DNA of 64,000 bases, from the NCBI GenBank assembly GCA_046263195.1, contig JBHELG010000033.1, positions 4,364 to 68,363 of the forward strand, read 5' to 3'. The notes beneath the pieces are model-generated. The model was not told the DNA's origin. It did not search any database and saw only the letters and a list, made by a program, of their open reading frames with translations. Positions 14,879 through 47,486 of the stretch are shown piece by piece (positions within the stretch are counted from its first letter, which is position 1; each line of letters opens with the position of its first letter). The position numbers and the translations under genes are program-made. Source of the stretch: Nitriliruptorales bacterium (lineage in GTDB: Bacteria; Actinomycetota; Nitriliruptoria; Nitriliruptorales; JAHWKO01).

Positions 14879-16407
14879 AAGGGGCGATCCTCCTGGGAGG
14901 AACGGGGTCGGACGTCGGCAAGAGCGTGCTCGTCGCTGGCCTGTGTCGCTGGCTGTCCCGCTGCGGCGTCAAGGTGGCGCCGTTCAAGGCTCAGAACATG
15001 GCGTTGAACTCGGTCGTGACTCCCGACGGCGGTGAGATCGGACGGGCGCAGGCGGCTCAGGCTGCAGCGGCAGGCGTGGCCCCCGAGGTCGCCATGAACC
15101 CCGTGCTCATCAAGCCGACCGGCGAGCGCCACAGCCAGGTTGTCGTCATGGGTCGGGCCGCCTTCAACGCCAGCGCACGCTCGTACCGCGACCACGGCGC
15201 AGAGCTCCTCCCGGTCGTCATCGAAGCGTTCTCGGACCTGTCCTCGCGATTCGACGTCGTCGTCTGCGAGGGTGCCGGGAGCATCGCCGAGATGAACCTC
15301 CGCCGCGGCGACCTCGCCAACCTCGGACTGGCCAGGGCCTTGGACCTGCCCGTCGTCGTCGTCGGAGACATCGACCGGGGCGGGGTCTTCGCCGCCTTCT
15401 ACGGCAGCCTCGCCCTGCTCGAGGCCGCCGACCAGGCGCACGTAGCCGGGTTCATCGTCAACCGCTTTCGCGGCGACCGGGGCGTGCTCGCGCCCGGACT
15501 GCGGCAGCTCGCAGCGCTCACCGGCCGCCCGGTGCTCGGCGTGCTGCCCCACCAGGACGGGTTGTGGCTCGACGCCGAGGACAGCCTGTCCTTGGACGTG
15601 GGTGGCTGGGACCGCGGCGGAGGCGGAACCATCGACGCACTGGATGTTGTCGTGGTGCGCCTGCCACGAATCAGCAACTTCACCGACGTTGACGCCCTGA
15701 CCGTCGAACCAGGCGTGTCCGTGCGCTTCTCGACGAGTCCGGCCGCGATCGCGCGCGCCGATCTCGCGATCCTGCCCGGTTCGAAGTCGACGGTAGACGA
15801 CCTGTCCTGGCTGCGGCGTATGGGAATCGCAGGCGCCCTACTTGAGCGGGCTGCGGCCTGCAGACCGATTCTCGCAGTCTGTGGCGGCTACCAGATGCTC
15901 GGACGTCGTATCGTCGACGAGTTCGAATCCGGCGCCGGTGAGGTCGACGGGATCGGGCTCCTGCCGGTCGAGACCCGTTTCGAGCCCACCAAGCACCTCG
16001 ACCGTCCCATGGGTGTGTGCCCGTTCCTGGGCTGGGTGGACGCAAGCGGCTATGAAATTCGTCATGGACGAACTCGGGTGGCGGGTGACACCCCCTTCCT
16101 CGTTGCCGTTGACGGCTCTCCTGAGGGTTGCGTCGTCGGCAGTGTGATCGGCACGTCGTGGCACGGGTTGCTCGAGGGGGACGTCCTGCGCCGTGCCCTG
16201 CTCAGGTGGGTGGCGGATACGACGGGACGTGACTGGCGGCCCGGCATCCGACCATTCGAGGCGGTGCGCGAGGAACGGCTCGATCGCCTCGGTGACCTCG
16301 TCGCAGCGCACCTAGACACGGAGGCGTTGACGGCGCTCATCGATAGGGGGCCCGCGAGCGGTCTGCCGCTCGTCCCGCCCGCCGGCGTGCCGGAGGTGGG
16401 TAGATGA
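14875..16407 (+). CDS. cobQ: cobyric acid synthase CobQ/CbiP
   Basis: 3' 510 codons of ORF 14326..16407. The ATG at 14875 overlaps the cbiB TGA (ATGA). 'GTGSDVGKSVLVAGLCR', 'FKAQNMALNS', and a GATase-3 region 'AVCGGYQMLG'. Confidence 0.95.
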   Translation: MKGAILLGGTGSDVGKSVLVAGLCRWLSRCGVKVAPFKAQNMALNSVVTPDGGEIGRAQAAQAAAAGVAPEVAMNPVLIKPTGERHSQVVVMGRAAFNASARSYRDHGAELLPVVIEAFSDLSSRFDVVVCEGAGSIAEMNLRRGDLANLGLARALDLPVVVVGDIDRGGVFAAFYGSLALLEAADQAHVAGFIVNRFRGDRGVLAPGLRQLAALTGRPVLGVLPHQDGLWLDAEDSLSLDVGGWDRGGGGTIDALDVVVVRLPRISNFTDVDALTVEPGVSVRFSTSPAAIARADLAILPGSKSTVDDLSWLRRMGIAGALLERAAACRPILAVCGGYQMLGRRIVDEFESGAGEVDGIGLLPVETRFEPTKHLDRPMGVCPFLGWVDASGYEIRHGRTRVAGDTPFLVAVDGSPEGCVVGSVIGTSWHGLLEGDVLRRALLRWVADTTGRDWRPGIRPFEAVREERLDRLGDLVAAHLDTEALTALIDRGPASGLPLVPPAGVPEVGR

Positions 16408-19400
16408 GCAGCGCCAAGGTCGAGCGTCCGATGATCCTGTTCCTCACCACGGCCGACACCGAAGTGCTTGCGGCTGCGGAAGCCGGGGAACGCCTACCAG
16501 CCGGCTTCCCGCACGTACGCCCAGTCAACCCTGTCGACGCCCCGGATGACTCCGGGGAGCTCAGTCGCTGGCTCGACGAGGTTCTGAAGGGAGTGGTGGT
16601 CGTACTCGTCCGCCTTCTCGGCGGACGTCGTGCCTGGCCGGCAGGTTTCGACCTCGTCCGTGAGCTCTGCCAGGCACGAAACCTGCCGCTCCTGGCCTTC
16701 GGGGGAGAGGACGTGGTGGATGCTGAGCTCACCGCGGCCTCGACCGTCCCCTCCGGCGTCATCAGGCACGGTTTCGAGTACCTGCGTCACGGCGGTGTAG
16801 AAAACACCGTCGAACTGCTGCGCTTCGTGGCAGACACCGTGCTGTTCGGGGGGTTCGGGTTCGGGCCACCCACGGAGATACCGCGCTGCGGCTGGTACCG
16901 ACCCGAGCTCAAGGACCGCTTGGACCGGGAAAAGCCGACCATCGGCGTGATCTTCTACCGGGCTCACTTCGTGGCCGGCAACATGGGCTTCATCGATGCC
17001 CTGCTCGAAGCCATCGAGGCCTCGGGGGCCAACCCTCTCGCCGTGTACGCCTATTCGCTCCGGCCGGAGGCCGACGGGCGTGTCCCGGCACTAGAGCTCC
17101 TCGCTGACGGGTGGGAGGGCGGTCGCAAGACCGCCGATGGGACATTTCAGGTCGACGCCCTCGTGCTCACGGTGCTGGCGATGGGCGGGTCGAATGCAGC
17201 TGATGCGGAGAGCTGGGAGGTACCGGCGCTGCAGGCGCTCGACGTCCCGGTGGTGCAAGCCCTGTGTGCCACGAGCAGCCGCGAACGCTGGGCCGCCTCC
17301 GACGCGGGCCTGTCGCCACTCGACGTTGCGATGCAGGTCGCGATGCCGGAGTTCGATGGACGCATCGTCACGGTTCCCTGCTCGTTCAAGGAGGAGGTCA
17401 CCACCGCTCACACCTCGGTGTACCGCTACGTCCCCGACCCGGAACGTGCCGCACGGGTGGCCGGCACCGTCGTCCGCCACGCCCTGCTGCGCAGGACTGC
17501 GAACGCGGACAAGAAAGTCGCCATCCTCCTGTCGAACTATCCGACCCGCCACAGCCGGGTCGGCAACGCGGTCGGGCTCGACACCCCCGCCTCGGCCATC
17601 GTCCTGCTCGAGTCTCTACGCGAGGCGGGGTTTCGGGTGGAGGGAGTCCCTCCCGATGGGGACTCGCTCGTTCACGCGCTCATCGCGTCGGGAGGCCACG
17701 ACCAAGAATTCCTCACCGAAGCTCAGCTCGCGGGGGCCAGCGGCCGTCTCGAGGCCGAACGCTACGCAGCCTGGTTCCAGCGCCTGCCCGTCAGTCTCCG
17801 GGAGGCCGTGGAGCGCCACTGGGGGCCACCACCCGGCGAGCTCTACCTCAGCCCAGACCGACGGGCCTTCGTCGTGTCGGGTCTCGTGTTCGGCCACGTG
17901 TTCGTCGGCATCCAGCCGCCCCGGGGCTTCGGCGAGAACCCGATCGCCATCTACCACGACCCCCATCTGCCGCCCACCCACCACTATCTGGCTGCCTACT
18001 GCTGGCTGAGGGAGGAGTTCGGCGCCCACGCCGTCGTACACCTCGGAAAGCATGGGACGCTCGAGTGGCTACCAGGTAAGGGACTTGGCCTCTCGGCGGG
18101 GTGCGCCCCGGACGCTGCCCTCGGAGACCTTCCCCTCTTCTACCCCTTCGTCGTCAACGATCCAGGCGAGGGGACCCAGGCGAAGCGCCGCGCCCACGCC
18201 ACCATCGTCGACCACCTCGTAGCGCCGATGATGCGCGCCGAGACCTATGACGACCTCGCGCGCCTGGAACAGCTGCTCGACGAGCACGCCCAGGTCGAGA
18301 GCCTCGACCCCTCGAAGCTACCGGCCATACGAGCCCAGATCTGGGAGGTGCTCACCCGGGCCGAGCTCCACCGCGACCTCAGCCTGAGCGAGCCGCCCGA
18401 GGACTTCGGTGAACTCGTCCTCCAGGTGGACGGCTACCTGTGCGAGATCAAAGACCTCCAGGTCCGCGATGGCCTTCACGTGCTCGGGGTTCCCCCGGAG
18501 GGTGAGCAGCTGCGCGGTCTCGCCAAAGCGATCCTCCGCCTGCCGCAGCGTGCCGGCCTCCCTGGGCTGCGATCAGCGGTCGGGCAGGTGTTCGGGCTCG
18601 ATGAGCGTTGGCTGCTGGAGGAGCCTGGGCAGCCGTCAGCCGCACCGCCGGCCCTGCTTGCCATCGCACCCGGGGCCGCGCGGACCCGCGCTGACCTGCT
18701 CGATCGCCTCGAGGAGCTCGTGGACCGGCTACTCGAGGCCCTCGACGCGAAGGGCTGGGACGCCAGCGCCGCCGAGGCCGTCGTCCAGGACGTCCTGCTT
18801 GACCCGCCCCGCCCGGCCCCCGCCGAGCATGGGCCGGGTGGGGGCAGGAGCAGTCCCGTCATAGAGGTGTTGCGGCTCGCCTGCGCTGAGGTGGTCCCAC
18901 GCCTGCGGGCATCCAGCCGTGAGGTCGAGGCGCTCCTGGCCGGCCTCGATGGGCGTTTCGTGCCGCCAGGACCATCCGGGTCACCGACCCGGGGACGCCT
19001 CGACGTCCTACCGACCGGCAAGAACTTCTACTCCGTCGACCCCAAGGGGCTCCCCTCGCGGCTCGCATGGGAGGTCGGCCAGCGCATGGCCTGCGACCTT
19101 CTGGCCCGCTACCAGAGGGACGAGGGTGCCCTGCCCGAATCGATCGGCATCGTCGTGTGGGGGACGGCGAACATGCGCACGAACGGGGACGACATCGCGG
19201 AGGTTCTCGCCCTGCTCGGGGTACGTCCCCTTTGGAGTGACGAGTCACGACGGGTGATCGGACTCGAGGTCACGCCCCTCGAAGAGCTCGGCCGTCCCCG
19301 GGTCGACGTGACGGTCCGCATCAGCGGCTTCTTCCGGGACGCCTTCCCCCACCTCGTCGAGCTCGTCGACCGGGCCGTGGAGATGGTCGCCTCGCTCGAC

Positions 19401-20225
19401 GAGCCCGACGAGTGGAACTTCGTCGCCAAGCATGCTCGCACCGACCAGGCCCGTCACCGGAGCAGTGGCGTTGCCGAGGACATCGCCTGGCGGCGGGCAA
19501 CGACACGCATCTTCGGCTCGAAGCCGGGCGCCTACGGGGCGGGTCTCCTGCCGCTGCTCGACGCACGCAACTGGCGCAGCGACGACGACCTGGCCGAGGT
19601 CTACGCCGTGTGGGGCGGTTACGCCTACGGGCGTGACCTGGACGGCGTCCAGGCCCGCGAGGAGATGGAGACGAACTTCCGGCGCATGGCCGTGGCGGTG
19701 AAGAATCAGGACACCCGCGAGCACGACCTCTTCGATTCGGACGACTACTTCCAGTACCACGGCGGAATGGTCGCCGCGGTCCGAGCCTTGACCGGAGCCA
19801 ACCCAAAGGCCTATGTCGGGGACTCTGCCGACCCTTCCCGCCTCCACACCCGATCCCTTCAGGAGGAGACTCACCGGGTCTTCCGTGCGCGAGTCGTGAA
19901 CCCGCGCTGGATCGCGTCGATGCGCCGCCATGGGTACAAGGGGGCTTTCGAGCTGTCCGCCACGGTCGACTATCTCTTCGGTTACGACGCCACCGCGGGC
20001 GTCGTCGACGACTGGATGTACGAAGCCCTCGCATCCCGCTACGTGTTCGACCCCGAGACCCGAGCCTTCCTCGAGCGGTCGAACCCCTGGGCGCTGAAGG
20101 CCATGGTGGAGCGCCTGCTCGAGGCGGCCGAGCGCGGATTGTGGGCCGAACCGGGCGACGGAACGCTGGATGCCCTCCGTGCCGCCTACCTCGACGTGGA
20201 CGGCGAGCTGGAGGGAAGGACGTGA
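16404..20225 (+). CDS. cobN: cobaltochelatase large subunit CobN
   Basis: ORF track 1273 aa, ATGA overlap with cobQ. CobN/Mg-chelatase H-family length and motifs ('[14 protein letters not shown]', 'DNPRWI'-like '[19 protein letters not shown]'). Confidence 0.95.
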
Positions 20226-20232
20226 GGGTCAC

Positions 20233-22173
20233 GTGAGCGTTCCCTACCCGTTCCCTGCGATCGTGGCGCAGGAGCAGCTGAAGCTCGCTCTCCTCCTGAA
20301 CGCCGTGGATCCCACCATCGGCGGGGTACTCGTACGCGGCGAGAAGGGCACGGCGAAGTCGACCGCCGTACGGGCCCTTGCTGCCCTCCTGCCTGAGCTC
20401 ACGATGGTCGTCGACTGTCCCTTCATCTGCGACCCCGCCGCGCCCAACCCGACCTGCCCAGCCGGCCCTCACAACGGCACCGAGGGCGTCCGGCGCCCGA
20501 CCCGGCTCGTCGAGCTACCGGTCGGGGCCACCGAGGACCGCGTGTCCGGCTCCATCGACATCGAACGCGCCCTGACGGAAGGAGCGCGCGCATTCGAGCC
20601 TGGCCTACTCGCCGCCGCCCACCGCGGGATCCTCTACGTCGACGAGGTGAACCTCCTTGCCGACCACCTCGTCGACCTCCTCCTCGACGCCGCCGCGATG
20701 GGCACGAACCATGTGGAGCGAGAAGGCATTTCTGTGCGCCACCCGGCGCGTTTTCTTCTCGTCGGCACGATGAATCCCGAGGAGGGCGAACTTCGGCCGC
20801 AGCTGCTCGACCGCTTCGGTCTCACCGTGGAGATCACGGCGCCGCGTGACCCCGTCCTGCGGAGCGAGGTCGTCCGTCGCCGTCTGGCCTATGAAGCCGA
20901 TCCCCTGCGCTTCGCCTTCCGCTTCGTGGCGGAGGAGACCCGGCTCGCAGAGGGGATCCTCGCGGCCCGTGGGCTGCTGGACCGGGTCGAACTGCCGGAG
21001 AGGGAGCTCGACCGCATAGTCGCCGTCTGTTCCGCCTTCGAGGTGGACGGACTGCGTGCCGACATCATCATGGCCAAGGCCGCTCGTGCCCTGGCCGCCT
21101 GGGAGGGTCGAAGGACGGTCGAGCGGGACGACGTCCGCCGGACTGCGCTCCTGACCCTGCCTCACCGTCGCCGCCGCCAGCCCTTCGAGTCCCCAGGGAT
21201 GGACGAGGACATGCTCGAGCGCGTCCTCGGTGACGATGACAGGCCCCAGCCACCCCCCCGCGGTTCCACCTCCGCCGACGAGCCCACGCAAGGCTCCGGG
21301 CGAGGCGAGGCGCACGCTGCTCCCCCGCCGACAGAGCATGCGAAGGCGGAGGCACCGGAACGTCTGCTCGACGCAGGGGAGGTGTTCCGCCCGGCCGTCC
21401 TCACCGTGCCCGGTGTCGGTGCCGGGGCCTATGGCCGGCGCAGCCCCAGCGAATCGAGCCTCGGCCGCGAGGTAGGCGTGGGAGATCCCAGCGGCGGCAG
21501 ACTCGCTCTGGCCGCGACCGTGAGGGTCGCTGCCCCGCACCAAGCGGTCCGAGGCCGCATCCCAGGCGAACCTCTCCAGCTCCGACCAGAGGACCTGCGC
21601 GGCCGGATCCGTCAGGGACGAGAAGGCAATCTCATCGTCTTCGTCCTCGATGCCTCAGGCTCCATGGGAGCGCAAAGCCGCATGACCGCGGTGAAGGGTG
21701 CCGTCCGGTCGCTGCTGCTGGACGCCTACCAACGGCGCGACAAGGTCTCCCTCGTCGCCTTCCGCGGTGACGGTGCCGAGCTTGTCCTGCCACCCACATC
21801 CTCGGTGGAACTCGCCGACCGGCGTCTCCTCGGACTGCGCACCGGGGGGCGTACACCTCTTGCCGCCGGGCTCGTCCGGGCCCATGAGCTCCTCGCCGCC
21901 GAGTCGGTCCGCGAACCACAACGCCGTCCCCTGCTCGTCCTGCTCACCGACGGCCGTGCCAACTCGAGCGGGGGACTGGAAGCGGCGCAGCGGACCGCCG
22001 CGGCTCTCGCGCGGCGCCGAGTCGCAGCCGCAGTCGTCGACACGGAGGAGGGCTATGTTCGCCTCGGGCTCGCCGCCGCAGTGGCCCGCCAGCTTCGTGC
22101 CCCCTGCCTACGACTCGAGGAGCTCGCCGCCGCTCATCTTGCCGACGCCGTCCGCAGCCTGAGCGCGGCGTAG
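20233..22173 (+). CDS. ChlI/ChlD-type fused chelatase ATPase (AAA+ N-terminus, vWA C-terminus), presumed CobN partner
   Basis: Inside ORF 20170..22173. GTG at 20233 ('[22 protein letters not shown]'). Walker A 'GEKGTAKST', Walker B '[10 protein letters not shown]', and C-terminal MIDAS '[10 protein letters not shown]'. Confidence 0.85.
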
Positions 22174-22192
22174 AGGCGTGCGAGGAGGGGGC

Positions 22193-22792
22193 ATGGAAAG
22201 GACGGTCCAGCCAGAGAGCGCTCCCGCGGGACAGGCAGACAGAGCTCCTCAAGAGCGTCGCCGTCGCAGACGTGAGCGTCCGCTGCTCGTCGTCCACACC
22301 GGTCAAGGCAAAGGCAAGTCCACGGCCGCGTTCGGACTCATGCTCCGGGCCTGGAACCAGGGCTGGCGCATCGGCGTGTTCCAGTTCATCAAGTCCGGAA
22401 AGTGGAAGGTCGGGGAGGAGGCCGCGGCTCGAGCCCTCGGCAACATCGACTGGTTCAAGATGGGTGACGGCTGGACATGGACCTCGCGTGACCTCGAGGA
22501 CTCCGCGGAACTTGCCCGCGAAGGCTGGGAGGAGGTCAAGCGCTGCCTGATCGACCAGCGCTATGAGTTCCTCCTCCTCGACGAGTTCACCTACCCCATG
22601 AAGTTCGGCTGGGTGGCCACCCCCGACGTCGTCACGGCTCTCGTGACCAGGCCGGGGTTCCAACACGTCGTCATCACCGGTCGCGACGCCCCGACCGAGC
22701 TCGTAGACGCAGCGGATCTCGTTACCGAGATGCGCAAGATCCGCCACCCCTTCGACCACGGTCACCGCGGCCAGAAGGGCATCGAGTGGTAG
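22193..22792 (+). CDS. cobO: cob(I)yrinic acid a,c-diamide adenosyltransferase
   Basis: Inside ORF 22178..22792. The ATG at 22193 is preceded by GAGGAGGGGG. 'VHTGQGKGKSTAAFGL' and 'LLLDEFTYP' are present. Confidence 0.9.
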   Translation: MERTVQPESAPAGQADRAPQERRRRRRERPLLVVHTGQGKGKSTAAFGLMLRAWNQGWRIGVFQFIKSGKWKVGEEAAARALGNIDWFKMGDGWTWTSRDLEDSAELAREGWEEVKRCLIDQRYEFLLLDEFTYPMKFGWVATPDVVTALVTRPGFQHVVITGRDAPTELVDAADLVTEMRKIRHPFDHGHRGQKGIEW

Positions 22793-24171: not shown

Positions 24172-24899
24172 GCGGGAGACTCGTCGGCGTCGGCGTCGGG
24201 CCTGGCGACCCTGCCCTTCTCACCATCAAGGGCCGGGAGGTGCTGCTCCGAGCGGACGTCGTGTTCGTTCCCGTCGCAAGGGAGAGCGGGCCACGTGATG
24301 ACGGCGAGCTCGGCTATGCAGAGCGGGTCGTGCTCGCCCACGTGTCCAAGCCACCGCGGCGGCTCGCCTTCGACCTCGACCCGTCGCAGCGGGAGGCGGT
24401 CTGGAGCGAGGCCGGGAAAGAGGTCGCCGCAGTCGTAGCTGGCGGAGGCACGGCAGCATTTGCCACCATCGGAGACCCCAACGTCTACTCGACGTTCTCT
24501 CGCATCACACGCGTGGTACGAACCCTCGTACCCGGCACGACCATCGAGACCGTGCCAGGCATCACGGCGATGCAGGACCTCGCGTCCCGCTCCGGGACCA
24601 TCCTCGTGGAAGGCGACGAGCGATTGGCGCTGCTGCCGTTCACGTCCGGGGAGAACGCCCTGCGGGAGGCGCTCGACCGCTTCGACACGGTCGTCTGCTA
24701 CAAGGGAGGTCGCCGGCTGCCGGACGTCGTCCGGGTGGTCCAAGAAGCCGGCCGTGCCGACGAGCTCGTCTACGGCGCACGTCTCGGCCTGGCGGGGGAG
24801 GAGATCCGCCGCTTCCCCATGGCCGACCCTGCGGGGGAAACCCCCGCACCCCCTGGGGCCGGCCCCTATCTGTCGACCATCATCGTCACCCGCTCGTGA
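24168..24899 (+). CDS. cobI: precorrin-2 / cobalt-factor-II C20-methyltransferase CobI/CbiL
   Basis: 3' 243 codons of ORF 23490..24899. GTGA overlap with cobB. 'LVGVGVGPGDPALLTIKG' and 'ATIGDPNVYSTF' are present. Confidence 0.85.
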   Translation: MSGRLVGVGVGPGDPALLTIKGREVLLRADVVFVPVARESGPRDDGELGYAERVVLAHVSKPPRRLAFDLDPSQREAVWSEAGKEVAAVVAGGGTAAFATIGDPNVYSTFSRITRVVRTLVPGTTIETVPGITAMQDLASRSGTILVEGDERLALLPFTSGENALREALDRFDTVVCYKGGRRLPDVVRVVQEAGRADELVYGARLGLAGEEIRRFPMADPAGETPAPPGAGPYLSTIIVTRS

Positions 24900-26488
24900 C
24901 TCCCTTCCAAGGCCTCGGAGGACCGCCGGCGGTGAGGGGCACCGTCTACGTCGTCGGCGGCGGGCCGGGCGATCCCGGACTCATCACGCTGCGGGCCGCC
25001 GTGCTCCTGACCACCTGCGACGTCGTGGCCTACGACCGACTGGCCCCACCGGACGCTCTGCGTCTCATCCCCGAGGACGCCGAGCAACTGTGCGTCGGTA
25101 AGCGCTCCGGCGAGGCCGGTGCGAGCCGTGACGATGTCCACGATCTGCTCGTAGCACGCGCGAGGTCAGGCAAGGCGGTGGTGCGCCTGAAGGGCGGCGA
25201 CCCGTTCATCTTCGGACGGGGCGGTGAGGAAGTGGCGGCCTGCCGTGCCGCCGGAGTGCCGGTCGAGGTCGTGTCCGGAGTGAGCGCGGCGGTGGCCGTG
25301 CCCGCCGCGGCCGGCATCCCCCTCACCCACCGGGCCGTCGCCTCTGGCTTCGCGGTCGTCACCGGACACGAGGACCCCGGCAAGAACGGAGGGCATCTCG
25401 ACTGGGACGCGCTCGCCGGCTTCCCCGGCACGCTCGTGTTCCTCATGCCCCTCGAGAACATCGGGCGGATCGCTGACCGGCTCATCGCCAGTGGTCGCCA
25501 GCCCGACACACCCGTCGCGCTCGTGTGTCGGGGGACGACCTCACATCAGGAGACCGTGGCAGGAACGCTCGCGACCATCCGCGGGCAGGTGAAGCACCTC
25601 CAGCTCGTCCCACCCGCCGTCGCGATCGTCGGCGACGTCGTCCGCCTCCGTGCTGCCGTCGCGTGGAGGGAGCGCCTGCCGCTCCTGGGCATCACCGTGC
25701 TCATCCTGCGCACGCTCGCGCGCTCGTCCGCGCTGGCCGCCCAGATACGCGCACTGGGGGGCGAAGCGCTCGAGGCGCACGTCATGCACACGCGCCCCGG
25801 GGACGTCGCCCTTCTCGCCTCGTCCCTGGCTGGCCCGTCCCAGGTCCAGGCGCTCGTCGTCTCCTCCCCGCCGGCGGTCGACGCACTCGCTGACGCCCTC
25901 GCCGCCGTCGGTCGCGACGCTCGAGCTCTGGCCGGCGTCCGCCTCCTCGCAGTGGGATCGGGGGCGGCCCGCGCTGTGCGTGCTCGTCTTGCCCTCCGTC
26001 CCGACGACTCCGCCCCCACCCTGCGCGACCTCGCGACCGCGCTCGAGCCGGGCGAGGGCACGGTACTCGTCCTCGCACAGGATGGCGGCGACGACGCCTT
26101 CACGGCCGCCGTCGCCGCCAAGGGCTACGTCCCGACCGTCGTCACCGCGTACCGCACCGAGTCCGTGGAGCGGCTGCCCGACGCGATCACCGAGCGCCTC
26201 CAACGGGGGGACATCGACTTCGTCGTGGCCGCCTCGTCGTCGAGCGCACGTCACTTCGCGGCCCTCGCAGCCGACCTGCCCTGGCGTTCCCGTGTCGTCT
26301 CCATCGGACCACGCACGAGCGCTGCGTGCCGTCAGGCCGGGCTCGACGTCCACGTCGAGGCCGCACCCCACGACTACGCGGGAATCGTCGAAGCGCTCGT
26401 CACACAGGCGGCGCTCGTGGAGGCGGGCAACGTGATGCAAGGCTCGAAAGCTTCCACGCCTCTTCCCGCCGTGGAAGAGGGACCATGA
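24896..26488 (+). CDS. cobA: uroporphyrinogen-III C-methyltransferase fused to uroporphyrinogen-III synthase (CobA-HemD)
   Basis: ORF track 530 aa, GTGA overlap. N-terminal 'VYVVGGGPGDPGLITLRA...RLKGGDPFIFGRGGEE'. The C-terminal ~260 aa are HemD-like ('VLILRTLARS...VVSIGPRTSAACRQAGL'). Confidence 0.85.
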   Translation: MTPFQGLGGPPAVRGTVYVVGGGPGDPGLITLRAAVLLTTCDVVAYDRLAPPDALRLIPEDAEQLCVGKRSGEAGASRDDVHDLLVARARSGKAVVRLKGGDPFIFGRGGEEVAACRAAGVPVEVVSGVSAAVAVPAAAGIPLTHRAVASGFAVVTGHEDPGKNGGHLDWDALAGFPGTLVFLMPLENIGRIADRLIASGRQPDTPVALVCRGTTSHQETVAGTLATIRGQVKHLQLVPPAVAIVGDVVRLRAAVAWRERLPLLGITVLILRTLARSSALAAQIRALGGEALEAHVMHTRPGDVALLASSLAGPSQVQALVVSSPPAVDALADALAAVGRDARALAGVRLLAVGSGAARAVRARLALRPDDSAPTLRDLATALEPGEGTVLVLAQDGGDDAFTAAVAAKGYVPTVVTAYRTESVERLPDAITERLQRGDIDFVVAASSSSARHFAALAADLPWRSRVVSIGPRTSAACRQAGLDVHVEAAPHDYAGIVEALVTQAALVEAGNVMQGSKASTPLPAVEEGP

Positions 26489-27255
26489 CCCGGCGCGGCA
26501 AGGTCTGGTTCGTCGGTGCCGGGCCCGGCGCGGCCGACCTCATCACGGTGCGGGGGGCTCGGGTCATCGGCCAAGCTGACGTCGTGATGTGGGCGGCGAG
26601 CCTCGTCCACCCCGACATCCTCACCTACGCCCCCCCCGAGGCAGAGGTGCTCGACTCCTCCCGCCTCACCCTCGAGCAGGTCCTCAGCCGCTACACGGAA
26701 GCCGCCGAACGGGGCGAGAGGGTCGCGCGTATCCACTCGGGTGACCCCGGCCTCTACGGAGCGATCCAAGAGCAGATCGATGCGCTCGACGGTCTCGACC
26801 TGGACTGGGAGATCGTCCCGGGCGTGTCGTCGCTGGGAGCCGCCGCCGCCGTGCTCGGTCGGGAACTGACCGTCCCCGAGGTCGCCCAGTCGGTCATCCT
26901 CACGCGTCTGGCCACCTCCACGCCCATGCCAGCCGGAGAAGACCTGCGCTCATTCGCCGGACATGGCACCACCATGGCGCTGTTCCTGTCGGCTTCGCGA
27001 CCCCGGAAGCTCCAAGACGAACTGCTGGCCGGCGGATACCCGCCCCACACCCCGTGCGCGGTGGTCTACCGCGCATCCTGGCCCGAGCAGCTCGTGTTGC
27101 GCTGTTCGCTTGGGGAGCTCGCTGCGGCCATCCGCAGCGCCCGGCTTCGGCAGCACACGCTCGTCCTCGTCGGCCCTGCGCTTGCCGGCAGCGGCACGCG
27201 CAGCCAGCTCTATTCGCCCGGCTTCAGTCACCAGTACCGGCTGGCGAAGGCATGA
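26485..27255 (+). CDS. cobM: precorrin-4 / cobalt-precorrin-4 C11-methyltransferase CobM/CbiF
   Basis: 3' 256 codons of ORF 26326..27255. ATGA overlap. 'VWFVGAGPGAADLITVRG' and 'RIHSGDPGLYGA' are present. Confidence 0.9.
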   Translation: MTRRGKVWFVGAGPGAADLITVRGARVIGQADVVMWAASLVHPDILTYAPPEAEVLDSSRLTLEQVLSRYTEAAERGERVARIHSGDPGLYGAIQEQIDALDGLDLDWEIVPGVSSLGAAAAVLGRELTVPEVAQSVILTRLATSTPMPAGEDLRSFAGHGTTMALFLSASRPRKLQDELLAGGYPPHTPCAVVYRASWPEQLVLRCSLGELAAAIRSARLRQHTLVLVGPALAGSGTRSQLYSPGFSHQYRLAKA

Positions 27256-28412
27256 CGAAGCTTCGCGAACCGGACCTGCCTCGAACGGCGAAGGTGCGCA
27301 CCGGTCCGATGCGCACCGGCTGGACCACAGGGACATGCGCCTCGGCCGCTGCGAAGGCGGCGCTGACCGCGCTCGTCAGCGGCGAACGGCAAAGCACGAT
27401 CGAGGTGGCCCTGCCTTCCGGGAGGCGCGTGAGCTTCCCCGTGCTGAGCTGCGAGCCGGCGGCACACGGCGCGTGGGAGGCGGTGGTGGTCAAAGACGCC
27501 GGCGATGATCCCGACTGCACGCACGGAGCCCACCTGACCGCCAGGGTGAGTTGGGCCGCTGACCCGGGCGTCCGCCTCGAGCGGGGTGAGGGCGTGGGGG
27601 TGGTGACGAAGCCCGGGCTCGGGCTCGAGATCGGCGCACCCGCCATCAACCCCGTCCCACGTCGCATGATCACTCACGCCCTCGGCGAGGTCGTCTCCCT
27701 CGTCCCGGGTGGGGTCGAGGTGACGATTCGTGTGCCGGGCGGGGAGCAGATGGCCAAGAAGACCACCAACCGCCGTCTCGGCATCCTCGGGGGCATCTCG
27801 GTCCTCGGGACCAGCGGAATCGTGCGACCTTTCTCGACCGCATCCTGGAGGGCCTCCGTACTGCAAGCTGTTGACGTCATGGCGGCTCAGGGCGAGGTCA
27901 CGTGCGTGCTCAGCACCGGGGGACGGACGGAGCGTGCAGCCCGTCGCCTACTGCCCGCCCTCCCGGAGATCTGCTTCGTGGAGGTGGGTGACTTCTCCGG
28001 AGCCGCCATCGAGCGGGCAGCTCGCCTGGGACTCACCCGGGTGATCTTCGTGGGTATGGCCGGGAAGCTGGCGAAGCTCGGTGCCGGCGTCATGATGACC
28101 CACTGGACGCGCTCAAAGGTCAGTGGGGGCTACCTCGGCCAGCTCACCCATCGAGCAGGGGGTGACCCTCGACTCGTCGCCGCGGTGGCGGCGTCCAACA
28201 CCGCTCGGCACGCCTACGAGCTGTGGACCCAGGCCGGCCTGGCCTCCGAGGCGGCGCAGCTGCTCTGCGGCGACGTGGCACGCAACCTGGCGCGGTGGAG
28301 CGAGAGACGGCTCGAGGTGGACGTCGTGCTCGTCGACTTCGACACGCTCGAGCCCGTCGCCATGTCCGGGGGGAGGAAGCCGGGCGGGCGGGGAACAGGT
28401 GGTGCGTGTTGA
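27252..28412 (+). CDS. cbiD: cobalt-precorrin-5B C1-methyltransferase CbiD
   Basis: 3' 386 codons of ORF 27054..28412. ATGA overlap. Hallmark 'RTGWTTGTCASAAAKAAL' and 'LGILGGISVLGTSGIVRPFS'. Confidence 0.85.
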   Translation: MTKLREPDLPRTAKVRTGPMRTGWTTGTCASAAAKAALTALVSGERQSTIEVALPSGRRVSFPVLSCEPAAHGAWEAVVVKDAGDDPDCTHGAHLTARVSWAADPGVRLERGEGVGVVTKPGLGLEIGAPAINPVPRRMITHALGEVVSLVPGGVEVTIRVPGGEQMAKKTTNRRLGILGGISVLGTSGIVRPFSTASWRASVLQAVDVMAAQGEVTCVLSTGGRTERAARRLLPALPEICFVEVGDFSGAAIERAARLGLTRVIFVGMAGKLAKLGAGVMMTHWTRSKVSGGYLGQLTHRAGGDPRLVAAVAASNTARHAYELWTQAGLASEAAQLLCGDVARNLARWSERRLEVDVVLVDFDTLEPVAMSGGRKPGGRGTGGAC

Positions 28413-29671
28413 ACCCTGCCCGCATCACGGTGATCGGAGTCGGCGCATACGGGCTCCCTCCCTCGGGGCGGGAGGCCCTCGTCGAGGCGGACCTCGTGGT
28501 CGGCGGCCGGCGCCTGCTCTCCCTCTGCCATGACGAGATTCCTCGAGGCGCCGCCACCGTCGTCATCGGGGGCGACCTCACGCCGGCTCTGGACGCGATC
28601 GAAGCGGCGAACGGGGACGTGGTGGTGCTCGCCTCGGGCGATCCGGGTTTCTTCGGCATCGTCCGTGCCCTCTCGGAACGTCTCGGCCGTCGTCGTCTCC
28701 GCGTCCTGCCGGGCGTATCGGCGGTAGCGACCGCCTTCGCTGCCGCCGGCTTGTCCTGGGACGATGCGATCGTCGTGAGCGCCCACGGTCGCGATCCCGC
28801 CACCGCCGTTCACGCCTGCCTGGCCCATCCGAAGGTGGCCGTGCTCACAGCTCCGGGATTCGGACCGGTCGATCTCGCCCAGGCATTGAGGCGGGCTGGT
28901 TGCGACGAGCGCACCTTCATCGTGGCGGAGCGCCTTGGCGAGCCCGGATCGCGCATCGTCGAGTCGGGGCTCGATGAGGTCGCCGGTCGGGTCTTCGGGC
29001 ATCCGAACGCTGTCGTCGTCCTCGACGAGCGGGCCGCGATGCGCGCGAGCGGAGCAAGCTCTCCCCGCAGACACGTTCCCGATGGGTGGGCCCTGGACCC
29101 GACGGAGTTCGCTCACCGTGCCGGCATGATCTCGAAGCGCGAGGTACGCGCGTTCGCCCTTGCCACGCTCGGTCCCGGCCTGGGGGACCTCGTCTGGGAC
29201 GTGGGGGCGGGCAGCGGCTCGGTGGCGGTCGAATGTGCCCGCTTCGGCGCCGCCGTCGTCGCCATCGAACGCGATGCGGAGGCGTGTGCCCTCATCGAGA
29301 AGAACGCCGCAGCCCACGATGTCGCCCTACGGGTCGTTCACGGCAGGGCCCCTGCGGCGCTGAAGGGCCTGCCCGACCCCGATGCCACCTTCGTCGGTGG
29401 CGGAGGCCCCGACCTCGAGAAGATCCTCGTCGAAGTCCTGGCCCGCACCTCTCGAGCGGTCGTCGTAGCCCTCGCCACCGTCGAACGGGTCGGGCCGACG
29501 CTCGCCGCATGCAACAGCGGGGGCTGGGAGGCATCGGCACGGATGCTGCACGTCTCGGACCTCGCTCCTCTCCCCGGTGGTCGTACCCAGGGCGACGCCG
29601 CGCACCGCCTCGCGGCGCACAACCCGATCTTCATCATCGAAGGGAGTCGCATCCGAGAGCAGCGCTCGTGA
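28406..29671 (+). CDS. cobL: precorrin-6Y C5,15-methyltransferase (decarboxylating) CobL (CbiE+CbiT)
   Basis: 3' 421 codons of ORF 28223..29671. The GTG at 28406 overlaps cbiD by 7 nt. 'VLASGDPGFFGI' is the CbiE part; 'VWDVGAGSGSVAVE' is the CbiT SAM motif. Confidence 0.85.
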   Translation: MLNPARITVIGVGAYGLPPSGREALVEADLVVGGRRLLSLCHDEIPRGAATVVIGGDLTPALDAIEAANGDVVVLASGDPGFFGIVRALSERLGRRRLRVLPGVSAVATAFAAAGLSWDDAIVVSAHGRDPATAVHACLAHPKVAVLTAPGFGPVDLAQALRRAGCDERTFIVAERLGEPGSRIVESGLDEVAGRVFGHPNAVVVLDERAAMRASGASSPRRHVPDGWALDPTEFAHRAGMISKREVRAFALATLGPGLGDLVWDVGAGSGSVAVECARFGAAVVAIERDAEACALIEKNAAAHDVALRVVHGRAPAALKGLPDPDATFVGGGGPDLEKILVEVLARTSRAVVVALATVERVGPTLAACNSGGWEASARMLHVSDLAPLPGGRTQGDAAHRLAAHNPIFIIEGSRIREQRS

Positions 29672-31350
29672 CGCGCATCGTGTTGGCCGCCGCCACCGCC
29701 GCGGGGCGGCGCCTCGCTGCCGACCTCGCCAGCCACCTCGGCGGGCACCTCCACCCGGGGACGATCAGGGACGCCATATCCGCGGCATGGCAGCGGGCCG
29801 ACCAACTCGTCCTGGTCATGGCCACCGGCGCGGCCGTTCGCCTCCTCGCCGACCACCTCCGCGACAAGGACACCGACCCGGGAGTCGTCTGCGTTGACGA
29901 CGCGGGCCGCTTCGCGGTCGCCCTGGTCGGTGGGCACGAGCGCGGCGCGAATGCGTTGGCGCAACGGGTCGCGGTCCACCTCGGCGCCACCCCTGTGATC
30001 ACGACCGCCTCCGAGTCGCATGACCTGCCAGCACTGAGCGCTCTCGGCTCCCACTTCGGCCTCCGTGTCGACCCCGACAGTGACCTCCCCGCCGTTGGAG
30101 GGGCACTCCTCGGCGGTGGGCCCGTGCACCTCCTGAGAGAGCGGCCGTGGCCGCTCGGTCCCCTCCCCGATGTCATCGAGGTCGACACCCCGGTCCCCCC
30201 TCTGCTCTGGGTGACCGACAGGAGCGTCGTGTCGCCCCGCCCCGCAGTCGTCTACCGGCCTCCGACCCTCGTCGTCGGTGTCGGCGCAAGCAGCGGCGTC
30301 ACGGCTGAGGAGGTCATCGCCCTCATCGACTCGGCCTTGGCCGACGCGGGCCTGTCACCGGGTTCGGTCGCGTGCCTCTCCACGCTCGACCTGAAGGCCG
30401 ACGAGGAAGGGATCGTCGAGGCCGCCGCCACTCGAGGTTGGCCCCTGCGCACCCTGCCGGCCGAGCGGCTCGCGGCCATCCCGGTTCCAAACCCATCGGC
30501 CGTCGTGGCGGCCGCCGTGGGCACGCCGAGTGTGGCCGAGGCCGCCGCACTCCATCTCGGGGGAGAGTTGCTCATCGAGAAGCGGCGTGGCCCCATGGCG
30601 ACCGTCGCGATCGCTCGCCGCCCCACCCGGGGCCATCTCGCCCTCGTCTCGCTCGGACCCGGCGCCGACGACCTCCTCCCGCCCCGTGCCCGCGTCGCCC
30701 TGGCCCGTGCCGAGATCGTCGTCGGCTACCACGGCTACCTCGAGCTCGCCCGTCCCCACCTCGCCCGCGGGGCCCGGCTCGAAGCCTTTCCCCTCGGCGA
30801 TGAGACGGCACGTGCACAGCGCTGCCTCGAGCTCGCCCGGACCGGACACGCAGTCGCTCTCGTGTCGAGTGGCGACGTGGGCGTCTACGCGATGGCATCC
30901 CCGACTCTCGAACGGGCCGAGCCCGACGTCGACGTGGAGATTGTGCCGGGCGTCACCGCGGCACAGGCCGCCGCGGCCCTACTCGGGGCGCCCCTCGGCC
31001 ACGATCACTGCGCCATCTCACTCTCGGACCTGCTCACTCCCTGGGACGTCATCCGTCACCGCGTGACCGCGGCGGCCATCGCCGACTTTGTCGTCGCCAT
31101 CTACAACCCACGCAGCCCCGCACGCCACTGGCAGCTCGACGAAGCCCGACGCATCCTGCTCGACCACCGCGAGCCAGACACTCCCACCGGAGTCGTCCAC
31201 GACGCCTTCCGCCCCCGCCAGCGTGTCGGGCTCACCACGCTGGGCAAGCTCGACGTCAGCGACGTCGATATGACCACCGTCGTGCTCGTCGGCAGCTCGC
31301 GGACTCGTGTTGTGGGCGGCCGCATGGTGACTCCGCGGGGATACACGTAG
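29668..31350 (+). CDS. cbiG/cobJ: CbiG (cobalt-precorrin-5A hydrolase) fused to precorrin-3B/cobalt-factor-III C17-methyltransferase (CobJ/CbiH)
   Basis: 3' 560 codons of ORF 29086..31350. GTGA overlap. The N-terminal ~320 aa are CbiG-like ('VLVMATGAAVRLLA...VCVDDAGRFAVALVGGHERGAN', 'VVGVGASSGV...LDLKADEEG'). The C-terminal part is 'LALVSLGPGADDLLPPRA...VSSGDVGVYAMA'. Confidence 0.85.
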   Translation: MTRIVLAAATAAGRRLAADLASHLGGHLHPGTIRDAISAAWQRADQLVLVMATGAAVRLLADHLRDKDTDPGVVCVDDAGRFAVALVGGHERGANALAQRVAVHLGATPVITTASESHDLPALSALGSHFGLRVDPDSDLPAVGGALLGGGPVHLLRERPWPLGPLPDVIEVDTPVPPLLWVTDRSVVSPRPAVVYRPPTLVVGVGASSGVTAEEVIALIDSALADAGLSPGSVACLSTLDLKADEEGIVEAAATRGWPLRTLPAERLAAIPVPNPSAVVAAAVGTPSVAEAAALHLGGELLIEKRRGPMATVAIARRPTRGHLALVSLGPGADDLLPPRARVALARAEIVVGYHGYLELARPHLARGARLEAFPLGDETARAQRCLELARTGHAVALVSSGDVGVYAMASPTLERAEPDVDVEIVPGVTAAQAAAALLGAPLGHDHCAISLSDLLTPWDVIRHRVTAAAIADFVVAIYNPRSPARHWQLDEARRILLDHREPDTPTGVVHDAFRPRQRVGLTTLGKLDVSDVDMTTVVLVGSSRTRVVGGRMVTPRGYT

Positions 31351-31611
31351 ATGACGCTGACCAGGAGCGACCCGCCAGGAGCTGCCGTCGGTCACCTCGG
31401 ACGCAGGAGGACCTGTGAAACCCCCCTCTACACCGTCACCGTCGACTGCACCGCATGCGGTGCCTGCCTGCGCACCTGCCCGGAACGCTCCATCCGCCCC
31501 GCCGTCCCAGGCTCCCCTGCCCCGCTCGTCGTGCTCGACACCTGCAGCGGATGTGGCGAGTGCGCCGAGATCTGCCCGGTCGAGGCCTGCGTGGAGGTGA
31601 CGCGGTCATGA
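31351..31611 (+). CDS. 2x[4Fe-4S]-type ferredoxin embedded in the corrin operon
   Basis: ORF track 86 aa. The ATG directly abuts the cobJ TAG. Two cluster motifs: 'CTACGACLRTCP' and 'CSGCGECAEICP'. Confidence 0.75.
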   Translation: MTLTRSDPPGAAVGHLGRRRTCETPLYTVTVDCTACGACLRTCPERSIRPAVPGSPAPLVVLDTCSGCGECAEICPVEACVEVTRS

Positions 31612-32183
31612 GACATCCCATCGAGGCGGAGAGCTACGCGATCCTGCGTGGCCTGCTCGACCTGTCGCACCTGCCCCCACTTGGGCGCGCGGTCGTCGAA
31701 CGCGTGGTGCACGCGAGCGCCGACCTCGACTACGTCAGCGACCTCGTCCTCGACGAGGAGGCACTCAGCCGGGGACAGGCCGCGCTACGAGCCGGCGCTC
31801 CCATCGTCGCCGACGTCGACATGGTCGCCGTGGGGATCACGGGCCGCAGGGTGCGCAACTTCGTCTCCGACGTTCGCGCCAGCCGCCTGGCGGCGGAGGT
31901 CGGAGGGACCCGCAGTTCGGCCGCCGTCAAGGTCGCCCGGGACGAGGTCGGTCCGGGGGCGGTGTGGGTCGTGGGCTGCGCCCCCACCGCCCTCGTCACC
32001 CTGCTCGAGATCGACGCCGCTCCCGCCTTCGTCGTCGGCCTGCCGGTCGGGTTCGTCGGCGCGGTCGAAGCCAAGGCTGCGCTGCGCGCCTCCGGTCTTC
32101 CCGCCGTGTCCAACCTCGGACCGAAGGGTGGGTCCGCGGTCGCGGCCGCCGCCGTCAACGCCCTGCTCGAGGATGTCTCATGA
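31608..32183 (+). CDS. cobH: precorrin-8X / cobalt-precorrin-8 methylmutase CobH/CbiC
   Basis: 3' 191 codons of ORF 31455..32183. ATGA overlap. 'VVHASADLDY' and 'VVGCAPTAL...GFVGAVEAK' are present. Confidence 0.9.
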   Translation: MRHPIEAESYAILRGLLDLSHLPPLGRAVVERVVHASADLDYVSDLVLDEEALSRGQAALRAGAPIVADVDMVAVGITGRRVRNFVSDVRASRLAAEVGGTRSSAAVKVARDEVGPGAVWVVGCAPTALVTLLEIDAAPAFVVGLPVGFVGAVEAKAALRASGLPAVSNLGPKGGSAVAAAAVNALLEDVS

Positions 32184-33133
32184 GCTCCCGCGCACACCGT
32201 CGGCCGCCAACCAACCTGCCGCTCGGCGTCCAACGATCGCCAGCCCCGTACAGCTCCACAGCCCCAGGCGATGCCCTCCTCGTCGCCGGGCACGGATCAC
32301 GGGACGACGACGGGGTGGTCGAGTGCGCCGCGCTCGTACAGCAACTGCGGCTGCTGCGCCCCGACCTGCCCGTCGCTCTCGGCTTCATCGAGTTCGCCCC
32401 TCCACCGCTCCGTGAGGCCGTCGCCGGGCTCGTCGCAGGGGGGGCCACCAGCATCACCGTCATCCCACTCGTGCTGCTCGGTGCCGGCCATGCGAAGACC
32501 GACGTTCCCGCCGCCATGCAGCGGGCACGTGACGCCCACCCCGACGTGACCTTCCACTACGGTGCGCCGCTGGGCGTCCACCCCGATCTCCTCACCGTCG
32601 TCGACCAGCGGCTCGACGCCGCCCTTCCCCCAGCCGCTCGTGTCGACACCGCGGTTCTGCTCGTCGGACGGGGGTCGTCGGACCCGGACGCGAATGCCGA
32701 CCTTGCCAAGGTCGCCCGGCTGCTGTGGGAGGGTCGTCCGCACGAAACGGTCGAGTTCGCCTTCGTAGGCATCACCGCTCCGTTGGTCCGAGCCGGACTC
32801 GATCGGTGCCGACGGCTCGGTGCCCGTCGCATCGCCGTGGTGCCCTACTTCCTGTTCACGGGAGTTCTGCTGCACCGCATCAAGTCCGAAGCAGACGCAT
32901 TCGCCGCCGCCAATCCCGGTCTCGACGTCGTCGTCACCGCCCACCTCGGCGCCGATCCCCGCATCGCGCGGCTGGTGCTCGACCGCTTCGACGATGCCCG
33001 GGACGGCCGCGCCCAGCCGAACTGCGACGTGTGCCAGTACCGCATCCCGCTGCCCGGCTTCGAACAGCGGGTCGGAGCCCCACAGACGCTCCACTTCCAC
33101 CCTCACGACCCTTGCCCAGAGGGGCTCAGGTGA
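32180..33133 (+). CDS. cbiX: sirohydrochlorin cobaltochelatase, long-form CbiX (two CbiX domains)
   Basis: 3' 317 codons of ORF 31964..33133. ATGA overlap. 'LLVAGHGSRDDDG' and a second domain 'LLVGRGSSDPDAN'. C-terminal Cys pair 'NCDVCQYR'. A SirB-type ferrochelatase role cannot be excluded from sequence alone. Confidence 0.75.
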   Translation: MSSRAHRRPPTNLPLGVQRSPAPYSSTAPGDALLVAGHGSRDDDGVVECAALVQQLRLLRPDLPVALGFIEFAPPPLREAVAGLVAGGATSITVIPLVLLGAGHAKTDVPAAMQRARDAHPDVTFHYGAPLGVHPDLLTVVDQRLDAALPPAARVDTAVLLVGRGSSDPDANADLAKVARLLWEGRPHETVEFAFVGITAPLVRAGLDRCRRLGARRIAVVPYFLFTGVLLHRIKSEADAFAAANPGLDVVVTAHLGADPRIARLVLDRFDDARDGRAQPNCDVCQYRIPLPGFEQRVGAPQTLHFHPHDPCPEGLR

Positions 33134-37504: not shown

Positions 37505-37719
37505 GGAGGCCGCTGGAACACGGCCGAGCCTCGACCCCGCCCATCTGGTAACCCAATCACCCCGGCCCCGTAGGGAGGTGGAAGGCCTGCTCGTCAAACC
37601 GCAGTTTCGTATCCGTTCGAGCGGGGGAGGAGGAAAACCGCGGGTAGACGGCGAAGCACCTCTTGATACCGTGCGACGGACTCGTTGCATGTTCCGACGG
37701 GGGGAAACAGGAGGGGTTG

Positions 37720-40348: not shown

Positions 40349-40387
40349 ACACCAACTGAGAAATGCGAGCAACTGCGGAACCGTGCC

Positions 40388-47483: not shown

Positions 47484-47486
47484 TCC

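Follow-up and report, generated by a model that had tools for sequence, protein, structure and literature searches.

The DNA analysed here is a 64-kb window (the whole stretch, about 70% G+C) from a Nitriliruptorales bacterium, and it contains a self-contained adenosylcobalamin operon of a design that is common in Actinomycetota. A single plus-strand series of 21 genes, about 24 kb long, stands behind one cobalamin riboswitch and, judged by domain scans, extends in scope from cobalt uptake (CbtAB) through synthesis of the ring to assembly of the nucleotide loop (Table 1). Two chelatases of different classes are encoded in it—CobN with its ChlID partner, and CbiX—and a precorrin-6 reductase of the CbiJ/CobK family is not. 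The reading we prefer, with moderate confidence, is that the operon specifies the oxygen-independent, cobalt-early route, with a chelatase of the CbiX-L type inserting the metal, a small ferredoxin serving the segment between cbiGH and cbiC, and CobN–ChlID acting as an accessory.

Genes were called from a codon-usage score together with domain scans (Pfam and NCBIfam), calling from the G+C content of third codon positions being too unreliable at 70% G+C. From cbtA to cobS, nearly all of the junctions are 4-nt overlaps (ATGA or GTGA) or gaps of 0–15 nt, and the whole of the 24-kb operon appears to be under B12 feedback with its own cobalt importer. An initial annotation, made by reading the sequence, had identified CobN, ChlI/D, CbiD, CbiG and CbiX here, and the domain scans bear out all five at the positions it gave. 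They also confirm that CbiG is the N-terminal half of its open reading frame (ORF), where the CbiG_N, CbiG_mid and CbiG_C domains lie with the methylase domain of CbiH behind them. Its statement that both sets of chelatase genes belong to one translationally coupled operon agrees with the overlaps and short gaps at the junctions.

One gene was overlooked in that annotation. Between cbiGH and cbiC lies an ORF of 86 codons for a ferredoxin; it begins one base past the cbiGH stop codon and ends in an ATGA overlap with cbiC. Because the ferredoxin stop overlaps the cbiC start by 4 nt, cbiC begins at 31608 rather than at 31455. The ferredoxin gene is alone in the operon in having no assigned step in the pathway.

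The initial annotation called this mixture of genes ‘chimeric’, a label that does not suit it: the design is conserved in dozens of actinobacterial species, and CbiX, CbiG and CobN–ChlID are combined in Ralstonia (together with CbiD) and in Haloferax, too. To follow the design, we scanned one genome per species, anchored the scan on CbiD, and mapped the proteins of the window onto the 80 related loci that resulted; picked as they were by similarity to the CbiD of the window, these loci speak to conservation of the design and not to its prevalence among actinobacteria. The order cobN-chlID-cobO-cobB-cobI-cobM-cbiD-cbiET-cbiG/cbiH-fdx-cbiC-cbiX, where fdx is the ferredoxin gene, is present in about 60 of the 80. 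The same order, ferredoxin included, surrounds three homologues of CbiX (68%, 64% and 56% identical, one of them in Streptomyces polyrhachis), and so the recurrence was found in two independent ways, from the contexts of CbiX homologues and from the scan anchored on CbiD. Carriers include named genera—Micromonospora, Catellatospora, Streptomyces, Actinomadura, Microbispora, Nocardiopsis, Saccharopolyspora and Rubrobacter—and metagenome-assembled genomes (MAGs) of Pseudonocardiaceae, Frankiaceae, Kineosporiaceae, Acidimicrobiia and others.

The individual members of the design are retained about as faithfully as the order. CbiX is encoded in 56 of the 61 loci that have sequence after cbiC, and chlID or cobN in 41 of the 44 that have sequence upstream of cobO. 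Some operons of Acidimicrobiia begin at cobO or cobB, with no cobN-chlID adjacent, and most of these retain cbiX. At the position equivalent to that in the window, 60 of the 68 loci that span the junction have the ferredoxin by a strict definition (an ORF with two cluster motifs after cbiH or cbiG), and three more have it by weaker criteria; four of the eight without the strict ORF are the non-actinobacterial ones. Across ten Micromonospora loci, the median ratio of nonsynonymous to synonymous substitution rates (dN/dS) is 0.19 for cobN, 0.14 for chlID, 0.18 for cbiX and 0.26 for the ferredoxin gene, with 0.17 for cbiD as a comparison. None of the four, at 0.14–0.26, is decaying, and the low ratios of cobN and chlID imply that CobN–ChlID has a selected function.

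Two chelatases in one operon

The CbiX of the window is of the long kind. It comprises two CbiX domains, whose GHGSR and HAK motifs match SirB in the alignment, and its gene is coupled to cbiC on one side and to cobU on the other. The nearest solved structure is that of Bacillus subtilis SirB (E 7e-34), an alignment that stops at residue 272–274, before the C-terminal tail. The tail, which follows the second domain, reads NCDVCQYR...HFHPHDPC, and of the 120 closest CbiX homologues, 118 have a CxxC motif within 100 residues of the C terminus. The cobaltochelatase CbiX-L is characterized by a C-terminal Fe-S motif and a polyhistidine tail (PMC8390425). The tail found here resembles it, which makes this protein a predicted chelatase of the CbiX-L type. 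A SirB ferrochelatase would be expected to keep genomic company with siroheme synthesis or siroheme-dependent enzymes, and to end without a C-terminal extension; this CbiX is part of a B12 riboswitch operon, and has the tail.

CobN–ChlID, for its part, looks like a conventional class I cobaltochelatase. CobN scores 1240 bits against TIGR02257, for which the cut-off is 822, and falls below the cut-off of the BchH model; the ChlI/ChlD fusion scores 780.9 against 779.45 for TIGR02442, ‘putative cobaltochelatase’. A point of comparison is the cluster on pSCAT of Streptantibioticus cattleyicolor, which belongs to the oxygen-dependent, cobalt-late pathway and includes cobM, cbiD, cobK, cobJ, cobI, cobH, cobG and cobN. 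Its CobN is orthologous to that of the window, with which it shares 55% identity, and the two loci have in common CobI, CobM, CobH/CbiC, and CbiD in place of CobF. They differ in that the pSCAT cluster has CobG and CobK, and has no CbiX, CbiG or ferredoxin. Both designs thus contain CobN, and the pair CobG and CobK in the one is exchanged for the trio CbiX, CbiG and ferredoxin in the other. CbiD had been taken by the initial annotation as a marker of the anaerobic route; since it sits beside CobG, CobK and CobN in the oxygen-dependent pSCAT cluster, it is no such marker.

As far as sequence can tell, several features favor CbiX as the chelatase of the pathway, among them the retention of cbiX in most of the Acidimicrobiia operons that have no adjacent cobN-chlID. 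Its distribution follows that of CbiG, CbiH and the ferredoxin; in Ralstonia it forms one protein with CbiC; and its tail is like that of CbiX-L. For these last three reasons, and because CbiX is not in the one CobG-type cluster that we examined, it is unlikely to be a SirB ferrochelatase.

Missing steps and the ferredoxin

The initial annotation listed CobG/CobZ, CobF and CobK/CbiJ as absent from the operon, and the same holds for the entire window. When all plausible ORFs were scanned against Pfam and NCBIfam, none matched PF02571, the CbiJ/CobK family, and no protein of the CobG or CobZ type emerged, CobZ being judged by domain annotation only. No CobF was found in the window, again by domain annotation only, and no further TP_methylase protein is among the plausible ORFs; the methylase domains of the operon score above the NCBIfam cut-offs solely for CobI, CobA, CobM, CbiE or CbiH. 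Searches of the window by tblastn, with queries from annotated records (the CobJ-CobK fusion of the Ralstonia megaplasmid, and CobK and CobG of S. cattleyicolor pSCAT), returned chance matches only (best E 0.05–9). Actinobacterial CobG reached at best E 0.55 in the window and had no match in the 80 related loci at 1e-4. A profile hidden Markov model (HMM) of CobK, built from 41 sequences and applied without filters to the ORF pieces of all six frames, had its best window match at E 1.9, against 1e-142 and 1e-80 for two positive controls. CobK or CobG within 10 kb was found in none of the 80 loci, a sample of about 1.4 Mb and many orders.

Another step is missing as well. No scanned ORF of the window contains the domain of a precorrin-2 dehydrogenase (SirC, or the N-terminal domain of CysG), and the CobA-HemD fusion consists of TP_methylase and HEM4 domains only, without a dehydrogenase domain. 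The cobalt-late pathway requires CobF or CbiD, plus CobK; in the window CbiD is present, while CobF and CobK were not found. A wider search with actinobacterial CobK led to Streptomyces clusters only, which is uninformative about carriers of this operon design, and a search of the literature for precorrin-6A reductases in the carrier genera turned up only unrelated papers.

Extra genes within related operons were considered, too. Four loci have one of about 350 codons between the ferredoxin gene and cbiC (L010, 14430–15515; L039, 14197–15309; L047, 14722–15786; L056, 14349–15458). It was rejected as a candidate reductase: by its signature motif, read by eye, it encodes a nickel/cobalt transporter of the NiCoT (HoxN) type. 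Other insertions in operons of Acidimicrobiia look, by eye, like genes for ABC transporters or sigma factors. An Actinomycetota MAG has 5.6 kb inserted between cobB and cobI; the last ORF of the insertion (L066, 7052–8080), just upstream of cobI, by eye resembles a luciferase-like, F420-dependent oxidoreductase.

This leaves the ferredoxin. CbiH60 of Priestia megaterium reportedly contains a [4Fe-4S] center of its own, in a C-terminal extension, that is needed for the use of cobalt-factor III. By analogy, a ferredoxin coupled to cbiGH could be the stand-alone equivalent of that center: it would supply electrons within the cbiGH–cbiC segment, and might replace the extension by which CbiH60 reduces cobalt-factor III. 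It might instead, or in addition, serve the reduction of cobalt-precorrin-6A, a step for which the window has no CbiJ/CobK gene; the two roles are not exclusive.

The route and its alternatives

The course of events that we propose follows the cobalt-early order, drawn from knowledge of the protein families. CobA-HemD would make precorrin-2, and the long CbiX would insert Co2+ at the sirohydrochlorin/precorrin-2 stage. CbiL, CbiG-CbiH, CbiF, CbiD, CbiET, CbiC and CbiA would then make cobyrinic acid a,c-diamide from the cobalt complex, CobO would adenylate this, and the remaining genes would complete the cofactor. The block cobN-chlID-cobO-cobB would be the late-insertion module of CobG-type actinobacteria, and CobN–ChlID would be kept here, under purifying selection, as a second, ATP-driven accessory chelatase. 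Its likeliest tasks, we suppose, are to metalate by-products that have no cobalt, or corrinoids obtained by salvage, or to carry out insertion at times of cobalt scarcity. In favor of this scheme, both hallmarks of early insertion, CbiX and CbiG, are encoded with the ring enzymes, and the CbiG step is held to require cobalt (PMC8305020).

Four points weigh on the other side. The route requires a precorrin-2 dehydrogenase and a precorrin-6 reductase, neither of which was found in the window. The nearest solved relative of CbiX is a ferrochelatase, and metal specificity is not readable from sequence. The role given to the ferredoxin draws on adjacency and on an analogy with CbiH60. And CobN is close to a late-insertion CobN and adjoins cobB and cobO, its neighbors in the order of late-insertion reactions, a likeness and a setting that argue for an unchanged substrate, which the cobalt-early route would not make. 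Taken at face value, the second and fourth points suggest another arrangement altogether, in which cobalt is inserted by CobN–ChlID alone, with hydrogenobyrinic acid a,c-diamide as the substrate, CbiX serves siroheme as a ferrochelatase of the SirB type, and CobG/CobZ and CobK are scattered elsewhere in the genome. CobN does score as a CobN equivalog; the CbiX of Paracoccus, an organism with the aerobic pathway, is a siroheme ferrochelatase (Bali et al. 2014, PMC4063343); and the operon is not strictly complete, the precorrin-2 dehydrogenase, for one, also being outside. We nevertheless think late insertion very improbable, because the CbiG-CbiH fusion has no role in a metal-free route, and because of the setting of CbiX: its gene is translationally coupled to cbiC and to cobU in an operon behind a B12 riboswitch, and CbiX accompanies CbiG and the ferredoxin in about 56 loci, is missing from the CobG-type cluster, is joined to CbiC in Ralstonia, and has the CbiX-L tail that SirB is without. 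The total lack of CobG and CobK within 10 kb of the 80 loci tells against it as well. Alternatively, cobalt might enter at two points, with CbiX and CobN–ChlID both acting on an early intermediate, or at two stages, and the ATP-driven class I enzyme taking over at low cobalt. Purifying selection on the two chelatases is similar; both are co-transcribed with the CbtAB importer behind one riboswitch; the combination is shared by Actinomycetota, Ralstonia and haloarchaea; and the gain of a NiCoT transporter by four related operons suggests selection that has to do with the supply of cobalt. On the other hand, neither sirohydrochlorin nor any cobalt-early intermediate is a known substrate of a class I chelatase, and some Acidimicrobiia operons of the same design manage without an adjacent cobN-chlID. 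Sequence is silent on substrate, and two points of entry strike us as quite unlikely.

Within the cobalt-early reading that we prefer, what reduces cobalt-precorrin-6A is a separate matter. The reductase alone might be scattered: a canonical CbiJ/CobK would lie outside the window, and the ferredoxin would be unconnected with that step. This is a serious possibility, if somewhat short of an even chance. The visible portion of the genome is 64 kb only, the precorrin-2 dehydrogenase is likewise unlinked to the operon, CobK is common in Streptomyces, and the counterpart gene set in Ralstonia includes a CobJ-CobK fusion. Against this must be set the 80 related loci, none of which has CobK inside 10 kb of an operon that holds all of the other ring steps; the pSCAT cluster, which keeps cobK inside; and complete genomes of archaeal B12 producers that are reported to be wholly without CbiJ. 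Because CobK is missing from 80 operons that contain every other ring step, and because archaeal producers are reported to lack CbiJ genome-wide, we lean toward a reduction that is performed by something other than CobK. A more specific proposal is tentative and, taken whole, doubtful: that the C18–C19 reduction of cobalt-precorrin-6A proceeds without the CbiJ/CobK family, on electrons that the operon's 2x[4Fe-4S] ferredoxin would deliver by way of an existing ring enzyme or the cobalt center, and that the substrate of CobN–ChlID is not hydrogenobyrinic acid a,c-diamide. If true, the operon would be a minimal, single-transcript model of the archaeal ‘missing CbiJ’ problem.

The initial annotation asked which of the chelatases acts, and what performs the reduction. 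These are real questions, but not new ones; they have already been posed in print (PMC8305020; Shelton et al. 2019; Doxey et al. 2015; Duran-Viseras et al. 2019). Genomes with both types of chelatase have been published, and the two pathways are not distinguishable by gene content (Shelton et al. 2019). Haloarchaea have the cobalt-early pathway together with an unexplained CobN–ChlID, for which salvage of corrins has been the speculation (Pfeiffer and Dyall-Smith 2021, PMC8305020). They have gaps for CbiD and CbiJ, and the 4Fe-4S ferredoxin of the cluster is regarded as an obvious candidate for the missing oxidoreductase (PMC8305020). Known archaeal producers of cobalamin lack CbiJ, as has been noted, too (Doxey et al. 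2015; Duran-Viseras et al. 2019). The locus restates a known puzzle in a new lineage, then, and is no new kind of system.

Its interest lies in its compactness. Two gaps in our understanding of B12 synthesis have long been noted: the role of CobN in organisms that insert cobalt early, and the substitute for precorrin-6 reductase in organisms without CbiJ/CobK. In many actinobacteria, all of the other steps are united in one coupled operon whose sole unassigned gene encodes a ferredoxin, and this provides a compact test bed for both questions, and culturable carriers such as Micromonospora, Saccharopolyspora and Actinomadura may allow genetic tests. There is a caution here, too, for annotation pipelines that label organisms ‘aerobic’ or ‘anaerobic’ producers by chelatase or CbiD calls.

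Counterparts, features and neighbors

The plasmid pHV3 of Haloferax volcanii (HVO_B0048–B0062) is like the window in encoding CbiX, CbiG, and CbiH, L, F, T, E and C along with CobN, a fused ChlID and CbtB-CbtA, in being without CbiJ, and in having a small ferredoxin directly after cbiH. The order is different (cbiT-cbiL-cbiF-cbiG-cbiH1-cbiH2-ferredoxin-B0055-cbiX-DUF3209-PQQ, chlID, cobN-cbiC-cbiE, cbtB-cbtA), CbiD is missing, CbiG and CbiH are not fused, and a DUF3209 protein, a PQQ-repeat protein and HVO_B0055 are extra. The Haloferax CbiX, unlike that of the window, is fused to a 2Fe-2S domain. Homology of the Haloferax ferredoxin, HVO_B0056, with ours is not convincing: it is of the single-cluster Fer4_15 type, as opposed to 2x[4Fe-4S].

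In Ralstonia solanacearum, an aerobe, the megaplasmid gathers CobN, ChlID, CbiX, CbiD, CbiG, CobO, CobB and a ferredoxin in one cluster that has no CobG, as the window does. It departs from the window in two fusions, one of a canonical reductase with the C17 methylase (CobJ-CobK) and the other of CbiX with CbiC. The ferredoxin, encoded next to the transporter, is also unlike the one found here, being a 2Fe-2S protein of the thioredoxin-like kind. The cbi operon of Priestia (Bacillus) megaterium has CbiJ, and is not known to include CobN–ChlID. Like the window, P. megaterium has an Fe-S center associated with the ring-contraction enzyme. It, too, is an aerobe with the oxygen-independent route, and its long CbiX has a C-terminal Fe-S motif and a His-rich tail (PMC8390425).

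Clusters of Nitrospiraceae and Myxococcales (L071, 7235–9961 and 15650–16132; L084, 4238–6823 and 12507–13052; L008, 25466–27997) are without CbiJ and without the actinobacterial ferredoxin. They carry, instead, a CbiX fused to a thioredoxin-like 2Fe-2S domain, DUF3209, an FNR-like FAD-binding oxidoreductase, and an ORF of 160 amino acids (aa) after cbiH; the Nitrospiraceae cluster has a gene for a ChuX-like protein in addition. With this set, these clusters may have made good the missing step in a second, different way. Haloferax, too, has the CbiX-2Fe-2S fusion and DUF3209. HVO_B0055 was tried as the equivalent of the 160-aa ORF of the Nitrospiraceae locus and rejected, the two being unrelated. 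The window has no equivalent of the DUF3209, FNR-like, ChuX-like or PQQ genes of the other clusters without CbiJ, and among the actinobacterial loci there is one weak FNR-like match (L062).

Table 1. The riboswitch and the 21 genes of the adenosylcobalamin operon, in order along the window
Feature	Position	Strand	Evidence
Cobalamin riboswitch aptamer, heads the operon	12052..12203	+	Rfam RF00174, 58 bits (gathering threshold 31.5), E 8.7e-12
cbtB, small cobalt transporter subunit	12253..12426	+	Pfam CbtB, E 1e-7
cbtA, cobalt transporter subunit	12442..13194	+	Pfam CbtA, E 4e-50
Histidine phosphatase, putative CobC-like alpha-ribazole phosphatase	13191..13796	+	Pfam His_Phos_1, E 9e-36; GTGA overlap with cbtA stop
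cbiB/cobD, adenosylcobinamide-phosphate synthase	13793..14878	+	Pfam CobD_Cbib, E 3e-86
cobQ/cbiP, cobyric acid synthase	14875..16407	+	Pfam GATase_3 and CbiA; ATGA overlap
cobN, large subunit of class I (ATP-dependent) cobaltochelatase	16404..20225	+	Pfam CobN-Mg_chel, E=0; TIGR02257
chlID, fused AAA+ (ChlI-like) and vWA (ChlD-like) chelatase partner	20233..22173	+	Pfam Mg_chelatase, AAA_lid_2, VWA; TIGR02442
cobO, corrinoid adenosyltransferase	22178..22792	+	Pfam CobA_CobO_BtuR, E 3e-60
cobB/cbiA, a,c-diamide synthase	22786..24171	+	Pfam CbiA and GATase_3
cobI/cbiL, C20 methyltransferase	24168..24899	+	TIGR01467, 192.5 bits (cut-off 163); GTGA overlap at start
cobA-hemD fusion, uroporphyrinogen-III methyltransferase and uroporphyrinogen-III synthase	24896..26488	+	Pfam TP_methylase and HEM4; NF004790, 279 bits
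cobM/cbiF, C11 methyltransferase	26485..27255	+	TIGR01465, 321.9 bits (cut-off 259.65)
cbiD, C1 methyltransferase	27252..28412	+	Pfam CbiD, 300.9 bits, E 8.5e-90; NF000849, 453.6 bits (cut-off 348)
cbiE-cbiT fusion (CobL-like), C5/C15 methyltransferase and decarboxylase	28409..29671	+	TIGR02467 and TIGR02469, both above cut-off
cbiG-cbiH fusion, lactone hydrolase and C17 methyltransferase/ring contraction	29668..31350	+	Pfam CbiG_N, CbiG_mid, CbiG_C, TP_methylase; TIGR01466, 286.6 bits
Small 2x[4Fe-4S] ferredoxin	31351..31611	+	Two CxxCxxCxxxCP motifs; Pfam Fer4/Fer4_7, E 7e-9
cbiC/cobH, methylmutase	31608..32183	+	Pfam CbiC, E 5e-56; start fixed by ATGA overlap with ferredoxin stop
cbiX, long two-domain class II chelatase, C-terminal CxxC and His-rich tail	32180..33133	+	Pfam CbiX, two stretches, E 1e-55
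cobU fused to CobD-type aminotransferase-fold enzyme	33130..34761	+	Pfam CobU and Aminotran_1_2
cobT, dimethylbenzimidazole (DMB) phosphoribosyltransferase	34749..35819	+	Pfam DBI_PRT, E 3e-110
cobS, cobalamin synthase, last gene of the operon	35816..36625	+	Pfam CobS, E 2e-38

The cobA-hemD fusion is found in the window and in its closest relative (L001/L002); most of the related operons run directly from cobI to cobM. Next after cobS, across a gap of about 140 nt, is a gene for an FkbM-family methyltransferase (36767–37504, plus strand) that is probably outside the operon. Long ORFs flank the operon at 10308–11510 (minus strand) and 37663–38883 (plus strand), both with coding-like codon usage and no Pfam match; the former ends in a stretch rich in Cys and His that looks, by eye, like an HNH nuclease. 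Farther away, the ORF at 2984–4162 (minus strand), beside a gene with a TrkA-N domain, matches baeRF family 10 (bacterial archaeo-eukaryotic release-factor-like; E 9e-23). A run of housekeeping genes occupies 40349–58911 on the plus strand: tilS, hpt, ftsH, folE, folP, folB, folK, genes for a DUF2520 Rossmann protein and a histone-deacetylase-family protein, panC, panD, the gene for quinolinate phosphoribosyltransferase, coaX, lysS and clpC, the last two recognized by eye only. Its order resembles what we take to be the conserved ftsH-to-clpC region of actinobacteria.

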